64,000 nucleotides of DNA, from sequence record OP555982.1; one strand, 5' to 3'. This document shows, piece after piece, positions 2,428 through 60,619 of this stretch. Made by a program: the position numbers and the translations under genes. The number at the start of each line of letters is the position of its first letter. Positions within the stretch are counted from its first letter, which is position 1. The notes under the pieces were generated by a model. It had not been told where the DNA came from. It saw nothing but the letters and a program-made list of their open reading frames with translations, and searched no databases. This stretch comes from Escherichia phage vB_EcoM-UFV11.

Positions 2428-2458
2428 ATTATACCACATCCTTGTGGTAAAGTAAACT
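2428..2458 (-). promoter_or_regulatory. T4-type early promoter (GTTTAC-N17-TATAAT)
   Basis: minus strand GTTTACTTTACCACAAGGATGTGGTATAAT upstream of 2402 start. Confidence 0.6.
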
Positions 2459-15046: not shown

Positions 15047-15076
15047 ATTATACCATACTCATTTTGGAAAGTAAAC
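15047..15076 (-). promoter_or_regulatory. T4-type early promoter
   Basis: minus strand GTTTACTTTCCAAAATGAGTATGGTATAAT. Confidence 0.6.
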
Positions 15077-45175: not shown

Positions 45176-45391
45176 TTACCCCAATTTAACCATACAATCG
45201 CCGTATTTCCACTTAGAAATAGACTTTTCACCATTAGAATAATAAACTTCGAGTTTAGCACGATTATTTTTAATTTGAATAACCTTTGCTGTCATCAAAG
45301 TTCCATACCCATAATAAACTGCAACTTCATCACCTACATATACCGCGCTTCCGCGGTAATCATGGATATAATCAGTTCCTTCGAGAATCAT
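45176..45391 (-). CDS. hypothetical protein
   Basis: 71-aa ORF. Confidence 0.5.
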   Translation of the reverse strand: MILEGTDYIHDYRGSAVYVGDEVAVYYGYGTLMTAKVIQIKNNRAKLEVYYSNGEKSISKWKYGDCMVKLG

Positions 45392-45651
45392 TTAAAGTAT
45401 TCTCGCAGTTGGTCAAATCCACCAATATGACTTCCATCAGGAGCAAATACCTGAGGCATTGTCAAGCCGATTTGAGTATCACGACTTAGTTTAGTCAGAA
45501 GCTCAGCGATTTTCTCATCATCAAAAACACCTTTTTCCGGCATAATGTTGATAAATTCAAACGGCTGTTTCTTCACGGTCAAAAGACGTTTTGCATTATC
45601 ACAATACACACATTTATGGATGTTGCTATCATAACCATATAATTTAAACAT
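45388..45651 (-). CDS. nrdC: thioredoxin/glutaredoxin NrdC (87 aa)
   Basis: 87-aa ORF with CVYC active site; matches recalled T4 thioredoxin. Confidence 0.9.
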   Translation of the reverse strand: MFKLYGYDSNIHKCVYCDNAKRLLTVKKQPFEFINIMPEKGVFDDEKIAELLTKLSRDTQIGLTMPQVFAPDGSHIGGFDQLREYFK

Positions 45652-45896: not shown

Positions 45897-46286
45897 TTAA
45901 TCCAAAATATTATTAGGCATTGGTTGAACACTCACAAGTTCTTTAAAGAACTCAGTAGAGTCAGGCAATTTAACCATTTCCGGAGCATGCTTACTGAATT
46001 TATGTTTACATTGACGGCATTTATATTCAAGCTCTGGTTTACGCCAGTTAATCAATTGAACTTGTTCAGTACCGCATTCAGGGCAATTAGGAACGTTTTT
46101 AGAAGCTCTTTCACGTCGTTCAACCATAGCCATAATAGCATCCCATGCTGGAGGTTTAAAATCTAAATCGTCGCAGCCGTGAATCTTTCCACGCATTTCC
46201 ATATCATCTTCCTCACCAGCCATAATAATTTTAATTAGACTAGAATTACTTGAAGCTGCAATGTCTTCTAATAAACGCTTTTTCAT
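45897..46286 (-). CDS. hypothetical zinc-ribbon protein
   Basis: 129-aa ORF with CPECG...CRQCKHKF. Confidence 0.5.
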
Positions 46287-47209
46287 TTCAATACCTCAAT
46301 AGCATTACGTAAACCATTTGCTTTTGCGTTAAGAGATTTTAACAATTTGGTGTGTTCTGCAATTTGGGCTTCAACTTCAATCAAACGGGCATTGAGATAT
46401 TCGCGTTCTTCTTTCATAGTATCATTCCCATGATTGGGTTTTGGTGCAGATTTAAATTCACTAGGGTCCTTTAACTTAATAACAAATTTAGTTTCAAACA
46501 GTGAAAGACCATAATTCGTATTATCATCAAAGGATTTAACTACATCCATATTAGATAATAACTCATGCAAATTATAAGACAAAGAACTAATAGTTTCATT
46601 GTGTTTATTAGCTTCGCGTGGTTTCATATACGGAAGATTTTTATATATCTCATGCGGAGCACAAATGATAATTGACAATTCAAATTGTCCATTCTGGGAC
46701 GATGGAGTGAATTTAGCCGTAACCCAGTCTTTTACATTCACATTAATAGTACGGTTATCACCATGACAAAACAATCTACGAGAATGCTTAAAAAGCATAT
46801 TCACGTTATTATTGAATTCGTGTGAAAATTCACTGGCAAATTTTTCTTTACTATCTTTAGAAAACCATTCTTCTAAATAAGTTCTTTTCACGTCGTTAAT
46901 AATATTAAATGTAACAACATTAGCATTTGATACATTAGTCTCAATGTAGCTTGGATACATAAATTTTTTAACATTATTAACAGCTATCACAGAAGATAGT
47001 AATCGGGAACGTTTGAACCACTCGAGCAAAGAACCAAGAGAATGTGAATACGCGTTTTGCGTATCTTTACAAATATGGTTTTCCCATCCAATATAGTCTA
47101 AAAAATCACGAAGAATATTATTGATTACTGCTCTGTGTCCTATCTGATAATTACGATGTTTAGTAATAAGACTGTCAAAATAATCAATATAATGTTTACG
47201 AGTTTTCAT
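46283..47209 (-). CDS. hypothetical protein, C-terminal coiled coil (tandem set 1 of 4)
   Basis: 308-aa ORF ending in heptad-rich tail. Confidence 0.55.
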   Translation of the reverse strand: MKTRKHYIDYFDSLITKHRNYQIGHRAVINNILRDFLDYIGWENHICKDTQNAYSHSLGSLLEWFKRSRLLSSVIAVNNVKKFMYPSYIETNVSNANVVTFNIINDVKRTYLEEWFSKDSKEKFASEFSHEFNNNVNMLFKHSRRLFCHGDNRTINVNVKDWVTAKFTPSSQNGQFELSIIICAPHEIYKNLPYMKPREANKHNETISSLSYNLHELLSNMDVVKSFDDNTNYGLSLFETKFVIKLKDPSEFKSAPKPNHGNDTMKEEREYLNARLIEVEAQIAEHTKLLKSLNAKANGLRNAIEVLK

Positions 47210-47263
47210 GTTCTTCTCACTTGGTTAATGATTTATACTCCGAGCCATCCTTGGCTTTAAATT

Positions 47264-48265
47264 TTACTTAATTAACTGTAAAGCTTGTTCAAGACGATCA
47301 AGACGATTAACGGATTCTTCCCAAATCTTTTTAGCCTTCTCATATTCTTTCTGTGCTTTATTAGAAATTTCTAGAGCTCCTTTATAAGCTTTTTCTAATG
47401 CAATAATTTCTGGACGAATTTCTACCGGTTCAGGCGAATCATCAAGATTATCCATTAGTTCCTCAAGGGTAGTTTCTTCTTTAGGGGTATTCACAATTTC
47501 TTCGCATTTTTGTTGGTAAATTTCTTTATCAGTCGGTGAATACGCACATTTCACTTCACGAAGACTAACTACAATTTTGTATCCTTCCCAACCACACATA
47601 TTCTTAAAAGGATATGTATGAATATTTTCTACTGTTTCCATACAAAGTAATGCAGTCTCTAACTGACGAGTTATAGTGCTAGCAATTGAGAAAAATTTAT
47701 TAATATTCTTTTGGTTAGCGTTTGGTGTAAAAAATCCATAATTCACAAAAATAGCTACTTTATTTTCGTCAAGCTCATATTCTTTTACGATAATCATATC
47801 AGAAGCCAAAGGATGAATTTGACGATAATCGCCATAACATAATTTAGAAGCTGATTTTAGAATTTGTCCTTTGAAAAGTCTGAAATTACTAATCCAACGA
47901 CGAGTAAAAATATTCTCAGGGTCTTCTTTATTATTAAGATGATAAGAATTAACATCACCGAACCAATTGTATCCTACTACATTTTTAGTTCGTTTAATTT
48001 CTTTCCCAAATTTACCAAGAATATCTCTGTTAACTAAATATGAAAGAAGACGAGACCCTTTAAAGGTTTCCTTAATATCATCTTTATCTGCACGACTAGA
48101 AATTTTATGAACTTCATGAATAAATTTGCTGGAAGAAACAATGCTTGCATCAGTATTATTGAGCCATTGATTGATAATAGAAATAACACTATTCTGACTA
48201 GACATAGGTTTAACTTTATCATCAATAACGCTATTGAATGATTTGATATATTCGTTGCGAGTCAT
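47264..48265 (-). CDS. hypothetical protein, C-terminal coiled coil (set 2 of 4)
   Basis: ATG at 48265 with SD GAGGAG; the ATG at 48295 lies within the promoter -10 box. Confidence 0.55.
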   Translation of the reverse strand: MTRNEYIKSFNSVIDDKVKPMSSQNSVISIINQWLNNTDASIVSSSKFIHEVHKISSRADKDDIKETFKGSRLLSYLVNRDILGKFGKEIKRTKNVVGYNWFGDVNSYHLNNKEDPENIFTRRWISNFRLFKGQILKSASKLCYGDYRQIHPLASDMIIVKEYELDENKVAIFVNYGFFTPNANQKNINKFFSIASTITRQLETALLCMETVENIHTYPFKNMCGWEGYKIVVSLREVKCAYSPTDKEIYQQKCEEIVNTPKEETTLEELMDNLDDSPEPVEIRPEIIALEKAYKGALEISNKAQKEYEKAKKIWEESVNRLDRLEQALQLIK

Positions 48266-48293
48266 ATTAATCTCCTCAGTAGAAAGTAAGAAC

Positions 48294-48323
48294 ATTATAC
48301 CACATCCTTGTGGCGAAGTAAAC
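48294..48323 (-). promoter_or_regulatory. T4-type early promoter
   Basis: minus strand GTTTACTTCGCCACAAGGATGTGGTATAAT, near-identical to the promoter at 2428-2458. Confidence 0.6.
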
Positions 48324-49342
48324 TAGTTTAGTGCATTTAGTGCATTGTTCAATTTAGAACGTTGCTTTGTCAGATTTTGAACCCTTGACTGAGCTTGTTC
48401 TAACACCTTTTCAGCTTCTAGCACTTCATTGGTCGCTTTAATGAGTTCAGCATCTACTGCCTTAAGAGACTTCTCAATCGCGTCAGCGTGCCATTTTTCT
48501 ACAGGTTTAAAATTTGAATTTTCAGTAGGAAGAAAATTCACTTTATTAAATTTCCATGCATCTTTATTACCTGAGCTATACATCCAAAATTTAGGATCGT
48601 TTGATGAGCAATTAGATAAATTTAAGTTATCTTGTACTTCCTGCTTTTTCTCTTGCGGGACTTCATCCTTTCTCAAAAAATCGTATTTAAATGAAACGAT
48701 CATATCAAGTTCATACGTTGTTGTATGTTCCCAATTTCGCTCAAAATGAGGTAAAATCTTAGACTGAACAGCGGCAACAACATCCATATACTTAAATGCT
48801 TCTGTCAACTGTGATTTAAGGCATTCACAAATTGAAAGAGAATTTTTTGTATTAGGCTTAAAGCTAATTCGTGCAGTTCTATTATTTTCTTTTAACGGTC
48901 TTACTTCCATCTGAAGAGTATAACCATCAAATTTCAGGTTCTTTAAGTTAATGTCAGAACCTTTTAATCGACTAGCAGTAGACAAAATTTGCTTTAATTG
49001 TTTACGGAATAAAGCAATAAATCTCCATTCAAGACGATAATGATTTGGATTAAAAAATCCTGTTGATAAATCAACCTTACTCTGACCAACGCCTTGAACA
49101 AATAGAGGATTTTTATAATCAATAGTTTTACAGAAATCGGTGAGCTGCTCACGAGCAGTCATTTGTGTAATATATCCCGCTTTACTAAAATGACGTAACC
49201 ATTCACTGCTATTCATATACTTAAAGTGAATGGAACTATTAACTCTATCAGGGTCTAAATTATTTTGGCACAAAAATGTCATAACATTACGGGTATAGCT
49301 AGCATTACGAACCATATCTTCAATTTGAGAACGAGTTTTCAT
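48323..49342 (-). CDS. hypothetical protein, C-terminal coiled coil (set 3 of 4)
   Basis: 339-aa ORF. Confidence 0.55.
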   Translation of the reverse strand: MKTRSQIEDMVRNASYTRNVMTFLCQNNLDPDRVNSSIHFKYMNSSEWLRHFSKAGYITQMTAREQLTDFCKTIDYKNPLFVQGVGQSKVDLSTGFFNPNHYRLEWRFIALFRKQLKQILSTASRLKGSDINLKNLKFDGYTLQMEVRPLKENNRTARISFKPNTKNSLSICECLKSQLTEAFKYMDVVAAVQSKILPHFERNWEHTTTYELDMIVSFKYDFLRKDEVPQEKKQEVQDNLNLSNCSSNDPKFWMYSSGNKDAWKFNKVNFLPTENSNFKPVEKWHADAIEKSLKAVDAELIKATNEVLEAEKVLEQAQSRVQNLTKQRSKLNNALNALN

Positions 49343-49350
49343 AGTGTTCC

Positions 49351-50259
49351 TTAAGATTTAAGTAAATCAACAATTTTAATTAATTTTTCACGCTCAGATT
49401 TAGCTTTACTACTCAATCCAGATAGTCTGAAAATTTCATCGTCATACTGTTGAATAGAAATATTTAGCTCTTCAATTTGCTTATTAAAATAATCAATTTG
49501 CTCAGAATGTTTTTCATTACTGCGAACTGGTATAGGGTTTGTAGGCAATTTAGTTGAACTAGATTCATCCGGGCGATAAATTAAAATACAACTTGAACCA
49601 ATTGGACATTTTGCACCAGATGAATATTCTAATGTTCCGGCTTCTTTTAAAACTTCAAAAGCTAAACAGAGATGATGCCCCATATTAACATAATCTGTAG
49701 AGCGAGCTCTGATGTAATAATCATCTCCGCGAATACTAAATTTAAAGCATTTAAGGTCTTCTGTATTATTGGTCTTAAAAATCATTTGTTTATCTAGACC
49801 TTTAGCTAATCGAGCGCCTAATGCTAATAATCGTCGTTGATTTTCCCACAAATCTGCGATCATTTGGTCAAATGATAATTTCGGCATTAGTCGACCATAA
49901 AGGTCATATCCTTTATTATAATTACGAAGGATTTCACTCGCGTTAATACGAGACAATGCTCCAATTTTATTAAGGGCTTTCATAATGCGATTAGATAAAC
50001 CCATTCCAGACCCGTTTGTTCGCTGCAAATGTTTTTCTAATCCAAATCCAATATCAACTTTAAACTTATCTAAAATTTCTGCATGAACATCTCTGTCAAT
50101 AACATTCAAATCCAAAGTTGGGTTAAATCTATGAAAAAATTTATCTGGCTCTCCACGACGAAGTACAGTCCATTCATTCATTTTTTTATTAACTAAAGAT
50201 TTAATTACTGTATTGACATTATTAATTACTACTGACATATTTTCCTCACTCAATTTCAA
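49351..50259 (-). CDS. hypothetical protein, C-terminal coiled coil (set 4 of 4)
   Basis: 302-aa ORF. Confidence 0.55.
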   Translation of the reverse strand: MKLSEENMSVVINNVNTVIKSLVNKKMNEWTVLRRGEPDKFFHRFNPTLDLNVIDRDVHAEILDKFKVDIGFGLEKHLQRTNGSGMGLSNRIMKALNKIGALSRINASEILRNYNKGYDLYGRLMPKLSFDQMIADLWENQRRLLALGARLAKGLDKQMIFKTNNTEDLKCFKFSIRGDDYYIRARSTDYVNMGHHLCLAFEVLKEAGTLEYSSGAKCPIGSSCILIYRPDESSSTKLPTNPIPVRSNEKHSEQIDYFNKQIEELNISIQQYDDEIFRLSGLSSKAKSEREKLIKIVDLLKS

Positions 50260-50653
50260 TTTTACTAAATATACAGAATATGATGGAAAAGACTATATAA
50301 GCACCACAAACAGATTGAACTAATACCATTCCAAAGAACCAAACAATATTATCAAACCATGTCTGTTTTACGTCGAAAGGACGTAAACTTACAGTAATAT
50401 TATCACCTTTTTCTATTGAAGAATACATCTCTGGGGAAATATATTCACTAAATCTATAACCGTCTTTGAGTTCATATACAGCAATAAACGATAAACTAGA
50501 CCCCTTTCCTTGTGTTCCTGTAATAGTATTAACTACAGTAACATCATAATCTTTATAATGCATATAATCATTAATTGCGTAATAACCATATGCAACTACT
50601 ACACATAAACAACATATCAATAAATTCAATCTTTTAATTATCAACTGTTTCAT
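50246..50653 (-). CDS. hypothetical membrane protein
   Basis: 135-aa ORF with N- and C-terminal TM segments. Confidence 0.5.
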   Translation of the reverse strand: MKQLIIKRLNLLICCLCVVVAYGYYAINDYMHYKDYDVTVVNTITGTQGKGSSLSFIAVYELKDGYRFSEYISPEMYSSIEKGDNITVSLRPFDVKQTWFDNIVWFFGMVLVQSVCGAYIVFSIIFCIFSKIEIE

Positions 50654-50708
50654 AATAATCTCAATTAAAAGGGCTTAGAACCATTATACCATCCTTGGTA
50701 TAAAGCGG

Positions 50709-51236
50709 TTATGCGAGTACCGTCTTTAACCGTTCTTCAAACTTCCGAAGAGTATTCTGGCGTTCAGCTCTTTGCTTTTTGTAAGTTTCAATACGCTCTG
50801 AAATGAGAGTGTATCGTTCATTTACTGATTCTTTCATAAAATCAGGAATTTCACGAGAAGCTTTAATCTCGTCAAATTTATCAATAACAGCTTGCTCTTC
50901 AGCAATTAAGTTATCATACATCAAAATATCTTTCTTGATGAACTCAATATCTTCTTGAGTTACACGAGATAATTTAAATGCTTTATCCTTTTTGTACTGT
51001 TCGTTAGTATCACGAGACCAGTGTAATGTACGATTTTTATTCGTATTCTTATAAATTTCTACAATACCAATATCATCAATAATAACGATCCAATTCCAAC
51101 GGGATTTGTAAATTTGTCCTCCATCAACTGTGATTTCACCTCCGATTGAGATGTCATTAAAGAACTTGCTTTGTGCTTCTGATTTAAATTTACCATCGTT
51201 GTAATTTACCAAGTTGAAAATATCTTTAGCGTTCAT
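50709..51236 (-). CDS. hypothetical protein
   Basis: ATG at 51236 downstream of promoter; ORF-track start is inside the promoter leader. Confidence 0.5.
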   Translation of the reverse strand: MNAKDIFNLVNYNDGKFKSEAQSKFFNDISIGGEITVDGGQIYKSRWNWIVIIDDIGIVEIYKNTNKNRTLHWSRDTNEQYKKDKAFKLSRVTQEDIEFIKKDILMYDNLIAEEQAVIDKFDEIKASREIPDFMKESVNERYTLISERIETYKKQRAERQNTLRKFEERLKTVLA

Positions 51237-51265
51237 TTTCTGTTCCTCCGTAGTTGATAGTTGTA

Positions 51266-51295
51266 TAGTACCACAGAGGAACAGTCTTGTAAACA
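51266..51295 (-). promoter_or_regulatory. T4-type early promoter
   Basis: minus strand GTTTACAAGACTGTTCCTCTGTGGTACTAT. Confidence 0.5.
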
Positions 51296-51296
51296 A

Positions 51297-52733: not shown

Positions 52734-52764
52734 TGTTTTGTGAAAAAATTTTTGAAATAAAAAA

Positions 52765-52782
52765 GGGAGCCCGAAGGCTCCC
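52765..52782 (-). terminator. hairpin GGGAGCC-UUCG-GGCUCCC plus U-run
   Basis: 7-bp stem, UUCG loop, TTTTTT after it on minus strand. Confidence 0.6.
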
Positions 52783-52784
52783 TA

Positions 52785-60589: not shown

Positions 60590-60619
60590 ATTATACCACA
60601 GTCAAGAGGAAAAGTAAAC
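60590..60619 (-). promoter_or_regulatory. T4-type early promoter
   Basis: minus strand GTTTACTTTTCCTCTTGACTGTGGTATAAT upstream of regB. Confidence 0.55.

Follow-up and report, generated by a model that had tools for sequence, protein, structure and literature searches.

Bacteriophage T4 is the best-studied of all phages, and about half of its genes are without known function, most of those in the plastic nrdC region included. One gene of that region, nrdC.5, is among the few with a phenotype, and it stands in a row of genes of similar size. Whether these genes are related to nrdC.5, and whether they might share its role, is the question raised by a locus of Escherichia phage vB_EcoM-UFV11 (sequence record OP555982.1). 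We analysed a 64,000-nucleotide stretch of this Tequatrovirus genome, referred to as the window, with positions counted from its first letter. The locus consists of four consecutive minus-strand open reading frames (ORFs), all in the early direction, which correspond to nrdC.3, nrdC.4, nrdC.5 and nrdC.6 in records that keep the T4 gene names:

46283..47209, minus strand: nrdC.3, 308 amino acids; PHROG 1435; named nrdC.3 in PP01 and Shfl2
47264..48265, minus strand: nrdC.4, 333 amino acids from MTRNEY; PHROG 1435; named nrdC.4 in RB14
48323..49342, minus strand: nrdC.5, 339 amino acids; Pfam DUF7235; identified by tblastn to T4 and to records annotated nrdC.5
49351..50238, minus strand: nrdC.6, most likely 295 amino acids from the ATG at 50238; named nrdC.6 in T4 NC_000866.4; family member by predicted structure
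49351-50259, minus strand: the mechanically called ORF of nrdC.6, 302 amino acids from a TTG

We propose that the four genes are tandem diverged paralogs in the plastic nrdC region whose products bind host defence proteins early in infection, a reading to which we assign a probability of about 0.6. The array is flanked by nrdC.7 and nrdC.2 and lies upstream of the glutaredoxin gene nrdC (45388-45651). The 3,977-bp four-gene region is 100% identical to MZ291552.2 (Escherichia phage vB_EcoM-UFV09), and several hundred Tequatrovirus genomes match it at 90-95% identity. An earlier reading of the window from its letters, here called the original prediction, had described tandem ORFs of 308, 333, 339 and 302 amino acids. 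The first three lengths stand, and the fourth is probably 295. Judged from the sequence, nrdC.6 most likely starts at the ATG at 50238 (MSVV...) and not at the TTG, because a GAGG lies 5 nt 5' of this ATG, the PHROG match of the 302-residue reading sets in at residue 8, and the lengths of homologues lie at 295-296 amino acids. A 343-residue version of nrdC.4 would begin at an ATG within the -10 box of the gene's own promoter, and the gene is therefore read as encoding 333 residues. Two of the genes, nrdC.3 and nrdC.5, do begin with MKTR as predicted, and nrdC.4 begins with MTR.

The original prediction also regarded the four genes as a paralog family. In BLASTP comparisons of all pairs, significance was reached only by nrdC.3 and nrdC.4 (expectation value, E, 2e-4), so that profile and structure comparisons were needed to address kinship. 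Family alignments were assembled from database homologues and the ORFs of 14 related IMG/VR loci, and the resulting profiles were compared with hhalign. The profiles of nrdC.3 and nrdC.4 matched with a probability of 97.9% (E 3e-13). That of nrdC.5 matched the combined nrdC.3 and nrdC.4 profile at 84% (E 7.5e-6) and, once the profiles had been enriched, at 92% (E 6e-7, 147 columns); it matched nrdC.4 alone at 81% over 243 collinear columns that extend to both C-termini; reversed-sequence controls for nrdC.5 against nrdC.3 and nrdC.4 gave 0.3-0.6%. We conclude with good confidence that nrdC.3, nrdC.4 and nrdC.5 are homologous. Existing classifications are finer. PHROGs places nrdC.3 and nrdC.4 in one family (1435) and nrdC.5 and nrdC.6 each in a separate one, and the superfamily proposed here would unite PHROG 1435, 2351 and 2257 or, in Pfam, the three separate entries PF26897, PF23882 and PF26899. 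The nrdC.5 protein matches PF23882 (DUF7235) over its full length (396.9 bits, residues 1-339; gathering score 30 bits) and is the sole member in the Pfam sense, as a Pfam search returned no match to PF23882 for nrdC.3, nrdC.4 or nrdC.6. The nrdC.5 family is very narrow: a search of the whole library of 1.84 billion representative proteins with its profile gave 13 matches, none from the other three families and among them a spurious repeat protein (P0237), a chimeric protein (P0236) and a deletion fusion (P0231).

The fourth gene is brought into the family by predicted structure. The common body fold was compared for AlphaFold2 (AF2) models of nrdC.4 and nrdC.6, with mean confidence (predicted local distance difference test, pLDDT) of 83.6 and 78.6, respectively. 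Both models present the same order of elements, namely a helical N-domain, two or three helices, a beta-hairpin, a long helix, a second beta-hairpin, a linker and a terminal helix. Placed on a global profile alignment, their DSSP secondary-structure assignments agree at 72% of 258 positions, compared with 42 +/- 5% for shifted controls. A Foldseek search of BFVD with the nrdC.4 model retrieved an NrdC.3-like protein (E 1e-8) and the NrdC.6 protein of JS10 (E 3.8e-5, probability 1.0), and the nrdC.4 and nrdC.6 models have common matches among uncharacterised proteins of ~300-340 amino acids from T4-like phages of Pectobacterium, Enterobacter, Serratia and Acinetobacter. These matches are near full-length (targets of 280-335 residues, ~300-390 alignment columns) and so extend beyond the tail alone. 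On the basis of these models, nrdC.6 very probably belongs to the family of nrdC.3, nrdC.4 and nrdC.5. The paralog family of the original prediction is thus supported by profile comparison for three genes and by structure comparison of nrdC.6 with nrdC.4 for the fourth. In the shared architecture, a helical domain at the N-terminus is followed by a central alpha/beta domain and a disordered linker, and a long amphipathic heptad helix forms the C-terminus. A motif common to the four proteins, ..A.[RK]L..GD.., lies in the central domain of nrdC.4, and the resemblance to tail-terminator folds probably resides in this domain:

47561..47911, minus strand: nrdC.4 central alpha/beta domain, residues 119-235; helices, beta-hairpin, long helix, beta-hairpin

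The C-terminal tails are the most evident common feature of the four proteins, and the following segments were delimited:

46286..46429, minus strand: nrdC.3 heptad tail, residues 261-308, ending ...LRNAIEVLK
47267..47413, minus strand: nrdC.4 C-terminal helix, residues 285-333, ending ...LEQALQLIK; AF2 helix 285-332 (48 residues)
48326..48508, minus strand: nrdC.5 heptad tail, residues 279-339, ending ...LNNALNALN
49354..49515, minus strand: nrdC.6 C-terminal helices, residues 242-295, ending ...LIKIVDLLKS; AF2 helices 242-271 (30 residues) and 277-294 (18 residues)

We scored a/d-position heptad periodicity over the last 42 residues of the 69 minus-strand ORFs of at least 100 amino acids in the window. 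The four genes ranked first (nrdC.5, 0.82), second (nrdC.3, 0.70), third (nrdC.6) and fifth (nrdC.4), which bears out the heptad-rich ends of the original prediction, save that the tails measure ~45-60 residues and not ~40. The periodicity in a long helix suggests that the tails are coiled-coil-like. In the AF2 models of nrdC.4 and nrdC.6, a low-confidence linker precedes the terminal helices. A motif, L-x-x-[A/I]-[I/L/V]-x-h-[L/I]-[K/N], is found C-terminally in register in all four genes; it was defined after inspecting the four sequences and is descriptive. In an ungapped, C-terminally anchored profile comparison, all six tail pairs scored above other offsets (z 3.0-4.9), and four of the six scored above every offset from 1 to 99, which provides one more line of evidence for the kinship of the four genes. 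The tails are among the most conserved segments in each family. That of nrdC.4 is the most conserved segment of its family, and in the nrdC.5 tail N323, Q327, K330, L331, A334, A337 and L338 are invariant across relatives of 24-94% identity. The nrdC.5 tail gave a weak keratin match in PDB (E 0.08). One further gene, nrdC.8 (50709-51236, minus strand; 175 amino acids), has a charged helical C-terminal segment and was considered as a fifth member; it was rejected, as it has no profile similarity to the family and the C-terminal register comparison of its tail with the four tails gave no signal (z about 0).

The family extends to relatives in which the number of copies differs. Members occupy a syntenic position upstream of nrdC.2/nrdC in Tequatrovirus, Dhaka- and Mosig-like loci, Mizar, JD18, fHe-Yen9-01, Karamvirus and Acj61 (Straboviridae). 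Tequatrovirus has four, with both nrdC.3 and nrdC.4 present. Dhaka- and Mosig-like loci have three, comprising nrdC.6, an nrdC.5 of 24-29% identity and an nrdC.4-type copy, and Mizar has three with an nrdC.3-type copy in place of the nrdC.4-type one. In Acj61 there are two, the adjacent genes p120 and p121 (E5E4A1, E5E4A2) just upstream of nrdC; each has a heptad tail in which L..AL occurs close to the C-terminus, the tail motif being present in p120 (...LNKALEIMML) and followed in p121 by a C-terminal extension (...LAKALVVSEARLNKK). A single tailed member adjoins an nrdC.2-like gene in JD18 and in a Karamvirus, and one was found within the examined portion of the nrdC region of fHe-Yen9-01. 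Of these, gp070 of JD18 matches the nrdC.3/4 profile at 93%, and gp94 of Yen9 has weak collinear matches to both profiles. By tblastn, nrdC.6 is the most widely detected of the four (741 phage records, with 553-696 for the others). This variation of one, two, three or four copies by genus agrees with the accessory region that had been predicted. Elsewhere in the early region of Acj61, an adjacent pair of ~370-residue genes, p076 and p077 (locus L015, 9028-11322), is annotated as mutual copies, and accessory genes of these phages are apparently often duplicated in tandem.

Within Tequatrovirus, the alleles of nrdC.3 are ~100% identical over residues 1-60 and 97-100% identical in the tail, and only 33-57% identical in the middle:

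46415..47002, minus strand: nrdC.3 variable middle, residues about 70-265; swapped between alleles, both ends near-identical

Among 656 phage records, the window carries a minority allele class represented by 138 records, compared with 356 for the majority class and a further 161 at ~55%. Members have also been fused and lost. In the Salmonella phage Manna, Manna_094 (locus L019, 2715-3752) is a 345-residue in-frame fusion in which residues 1-262 of nrdC.6 meet residues 251-333 of nrdC.4 at a short (D/E)EI microhomology, with loss of nrdC.5 and most of nrdC.4; it constitutes a natural body/tail chimera with the body of nrdC.6 and the linker and tail of nrdC.4. In the Escherichia phage Pinarejo (locus L020, 3439-3652), nrdC.6 is reduced to a remnant in which the first 21 codons are out of frame to the last 47, and the gene is therefore dispensable in that phage. 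Two further fusions, one of nrdC.5 (146-274) to nrdC.3 (146-end) in P0056 and one in P0231 that places the tail of nrdC.5 behind the N-terminus of a gene unrelated to it, fit frequent microhomology-mediated deletions in the region. Recombination between paralogs in register was considered for P0056 and Manna_094 and rejected, both junctions being out of register and at short microhomologies.

All four genes are constrained and under purifying selection. The ratios of non-synonymous to synonymous substitution rates (dN/dS) were 0.06-0.10 for nrdC.6, 0.14-0.18 for nrdC.5, 0.19-0.22 for nrdC.4 and 0.20-0.35 for nrdC.3, compared with 0.05-0.14 for neighbour genes, so that nrdC.3, nrdC.4 and nrdC.5 evolve at two to three times the rate of the genes around them. 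Gene-wide positive selection was not found in any of the four (dN/dS 0.06-0.35). The family had been predicted to be diversifying, and this holds for copy number, for the swapped nrdC.3 middles and for fusions and deletions, but not in the sense of gene-wide positive selection.

The array has a promoter of its own before the second gene, for which the original prediction had noted a near-identical counterpart at rIIA.1, outside the gene family:

48294..48323, minus strand: T4-type early promoter before nrdC.4, GTTTACTTCGCCACAAGGATGTGGTATAAT; GTTTAC, 17 nt, TGGTATAAT
2428..2457, minus strand: early promoter before rIIA.1, matching the nrdC.4 promoter at 28/30 positions

This likeness was confirmed, with the same base at 28 of 30 positions and a match in 0 of 100 shuffles. 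It stops at the promoter core, and the rIIA.1 copy is directly upstream of the 67-residue rIIA.1 ORF (2199-2402). The window holds four sites of the extended early-promoter pattern GTTTAC-N14-16-TGNTATAAT (2428-2457, 15047-15076, 48294-48323 and 60590-60619, all on the minus strand), of which only the rIIA.1 and nrdC.4 copies share a near-identical spacer (28/30). The pair was considered as a recombination substrate and is left as a note, since the copies are separated by 46 kb of DNA that includes essential genes. The spacer between nrdC.4 and nrdC.3 (47210-47263, minus strand) contains a small hairpin (47240-47257) followed by GAGTATAAATC, which matches the T4 late-promoter consensus TATAAATA at 7 of 8 positions; a late promoter within an early array would be unusual.

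A functional foothold is provided by nrdC.5. Srikant, Guegler and Laub (eLife 2022, PMC9391042) identified T4 nrdC.5 as a counter to the SIR2 defence protein Dsr1. An evolved T4 clone that carried compensatory deletions failed to plate on ECOR17 but plated again when the host lacked dsr1; MG1655 was protected from the mutant T4 by dsr1 on a plasmid, and expression of T4 nrdC.5 restored infection (PMC9391042). T4 lacking nrdC.5 still grows on MG1655 (PMC9391042). The window gene is the ortholog of T4 NrdC.5 (Y05A_BPT4, 39.7 kDa, PF23882), with 91.5% identity by tblastn and the same genomic position. Dsr1 is a SIR2 NADase; it has a tetratricopeptide repeat sensor in common with Avs7 and is triggered by the major capsid protein (2026 preprint, PMC12803255). 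The report on T4 nrdC.5 gives no mechanism, fold, tail or kinship to nrdC.3, nrdC.4 and nrdC.6 (PMC9391042), and a literature search yielded no publication on how nrdC.5 works, nor any on the other three genes. Searches of Pfam, NCBIfam, PADLOC and PDB sequences revealed no enzyme domain in the four proteins, and beyond DUF7235 for nrdC.5 the database scans returned just weak matches to designed helical repeats and keratin. No related solved structure was found in PDB with the nrdC.5 sequence and three family profiles.

Comparison with known systems provides partial parallels. DSAD1 of SPbeta-like Bacillus phages is likewise reported to be a phage inhibitor of a SIR2-type Dsr protein, one whose trigger is a structural component of the phage; it is the nearest functional analogue for the binding model proposed here. 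It differs in acting on DSR2 rather than Dsr1, and the DSR2 trigger is the tail tube and not a capsid protein. The nrdC.5 sequence and three family profiles had no similarity to DSAD1 among all PDB chains, DSR2-DSAD1 complexes included. We know of no tandem paralog array for DSAD1. The T4 accessory counter-defence genes tifA, dmd, adfA, ipI and ipIII likewise encode non-essential early or injected proteins that set which defence-carrying hosts can be infected, and they too lie in plastic regions and are lost through microhomology-mediated deletion, but their sequences are unrelated to the family, and for none of them has an array of four tandem paralogs with a common tail been described.

The explanation we favour would combine these observations as follows. 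The proteins may act by binding, being made before the late structural proteins appear. The variable body would bind and block a host defence protein ahead of its late trigger, Dsr1 for nrdC.5 and other targets for the paralogs, and the conserved tail would provide oligomerisation or another shared interaction. As no enzyme family was matched, stoichiometric binding is the best-supported model, and because their paralog nrdC.5 disarms Dsr1, nrdC.3, nrdC.4 and nrdC.6 are candidate anti-defence genes, a role that we infer for them. Several points weigh against this explanation. The phenotype on record is that of T4 nrdC.5 alone, to which the window copy is 91.5% identical, and the binding of NrdC.5 to Dsr1 is an assumption. 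With dN/dS of 0.06-0.10, nrdC.6 is conserved to the same degree as the genes around it, and this is atypical for an arms-race gene. The tie of nrdC.5 to the family comes through sequence profiles only, and that of nrdC.6 through predicted structures with Foldseek template modelling (TM) scores of 0.37-0.49, profile comparison of nrdC.6 with the other three by hhalign being not significant (probability 0.5-12%, E 0.0025-0.11). The coiled-coil character of the tails is likewise deduced from periodicity plus a predicted isolated nrdC.4 helix (pLDDT 67-81) in monomer models.

Other explanations are less probable. It is possible, if rather unlikely, that nrdC.5 alone is a counter-defence gene and that its paralogs reuse the scaffold for other early host-takeover roles, such as binding non-immune host proteins. 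A phenotype limited to nrdC.5 is compatible with this, and the strong purifying selection on nrdC.6, equal to that on its neighbours, together with its widest detection fits a more general role. Against it stand the swaps of the nrdC.3 middle between conserved ends, the genus-dependent copy number, the loss of single members in viable phages and the location of the array in accessory DNA that is plastic, all of them features that typify genes for host range or anti-defence. That the four do not form one family, with nrdC.3 and nrdC.4 (perhaps also nrdC.5) related and nrdC.6 an outsider whose tail arose by convergence or module recombination, would account for the missing profile link and the modest TM-scores, and Manna_094 indicates that tails are exchangeable. 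We consider this improbable in view of the near full-length Foldseek matches at probability 1.0, the same order of body elements with DSSP states that agree at 72% (shifted controls, 42%), the weak collinear matches of Yen9 gp94 to both profiles and the synteny of the genes. Even the insignificant nrdC.6 alignments set the same motifs in the same helices (G.LSR.NA..IL..Y/SRLLS.LVN.DIL..F; ARLA.G.DKQ/ASKL..GD.R).

The weak likeness of the central domain to tail-terminator and tail-completion proteins would suggest a role in the virion or in tail assembly. This can be given hardly any credence, as the genes have the early direction and an early promoter and are remote from the structural module, viable phages exist in which members have been deleted or fused, growth of T4 on MG1655 does not require nrdC.5, and T4 possesses tail terminators of its own. 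A bolder elaboration of the counter-defence explanation, which we regard as unlikely, would make the proteins modular plugs for immune sensors. Each exchangeable central domain, weakly tail-terminator-like in its alpha/beta fold, would occupy the repeat-type sensor of a different immune receptor that senses a late structural protein; the target would be Dsr1 for nrdC.5 and, for the others, relatives such as Avs-type receptors. Assembly of the proteins, perhaps into mixed oligomers, would fall to the tail, and recombination that exchanges the middle segment between the conserved flanks, N-terminus and tail, would give rise to new specificities. Simple mimicry of the Dsr1 trigger was considered and is unsupported, as that trigger is the major capsid protein and not the tail terminator. 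Early binding of host defence proteins by tandem diverged paralogs is the explanation we retain.

A widespread label of these genes calls for correction. Many GenBank records, MZ291552.2 included, label nrdC.2 to nrdC.8 (45897-51296 in the window) as thioredoxin. For nrdC.3 to nrdC.6 this identity does not hold: Pfam and NCBIfam gave no thioredoxin or glutaredoxin match, the CxxC motif is absent from all four protein sequences, and the AF2 topology of the nrdC.4 and nrdC.6 models differs from the thioredoxin fold. The label derives from the gene name nrdC.x. The neighbouring nrdC.2 (45897-46286, minus strand) encodes 129 amino acids with a zinc-ribbon match under the Pfam cutoff. The overlap of its start codon with the stop codon of nrdC.3 (ATGA) suggests that the two genes are translationally coupled. 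In one Tequatrovirus locus (L002) nrdC.2 is only 83% identical, and in two others it is 100% identical. Further upstream, just beyond the nrdC.11 stop codon and overlapping the mechanically listed nrdC.10 ORF, a strong GC-rich hairpin on both strands (52764-52783; 8 bp, 6 of them GC pairs) is followed on the minus strand by a T-run and looks like an intrinsic terminator.

The locus is already known as a named part of T4-like genomes, and the anti-defence role of nrdC.5 has been published. What is new is the kinship that unites the four genes, a common architecture in which the tail is conserved and the middle can be exchanged, and the extension of the family to nrdC-adjacent genes of other Straboviridae. 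This placement also accounts for the split of the family into three in current databases. Although no new kind of system is revealed, three ORFans are turned into testable counter-defence candidates: placement in a family with nrdC.5 makes nrdC.3, nrdC.4 and nrdC.6 concrete candidates for host-range or counter-defence functions, and the nrdC-adjacent relatives in phages of Klebsiella, Enterobacter, Yersinia and Acinetobacter add to their number. The domain map of variable body and conserved tail can be used in the design of truncations and chimeras. If the paralogs do act on different defence systems, the copy number of the array and the allele types that it carries would help to predict the host range of therapeutic T4-like phages.

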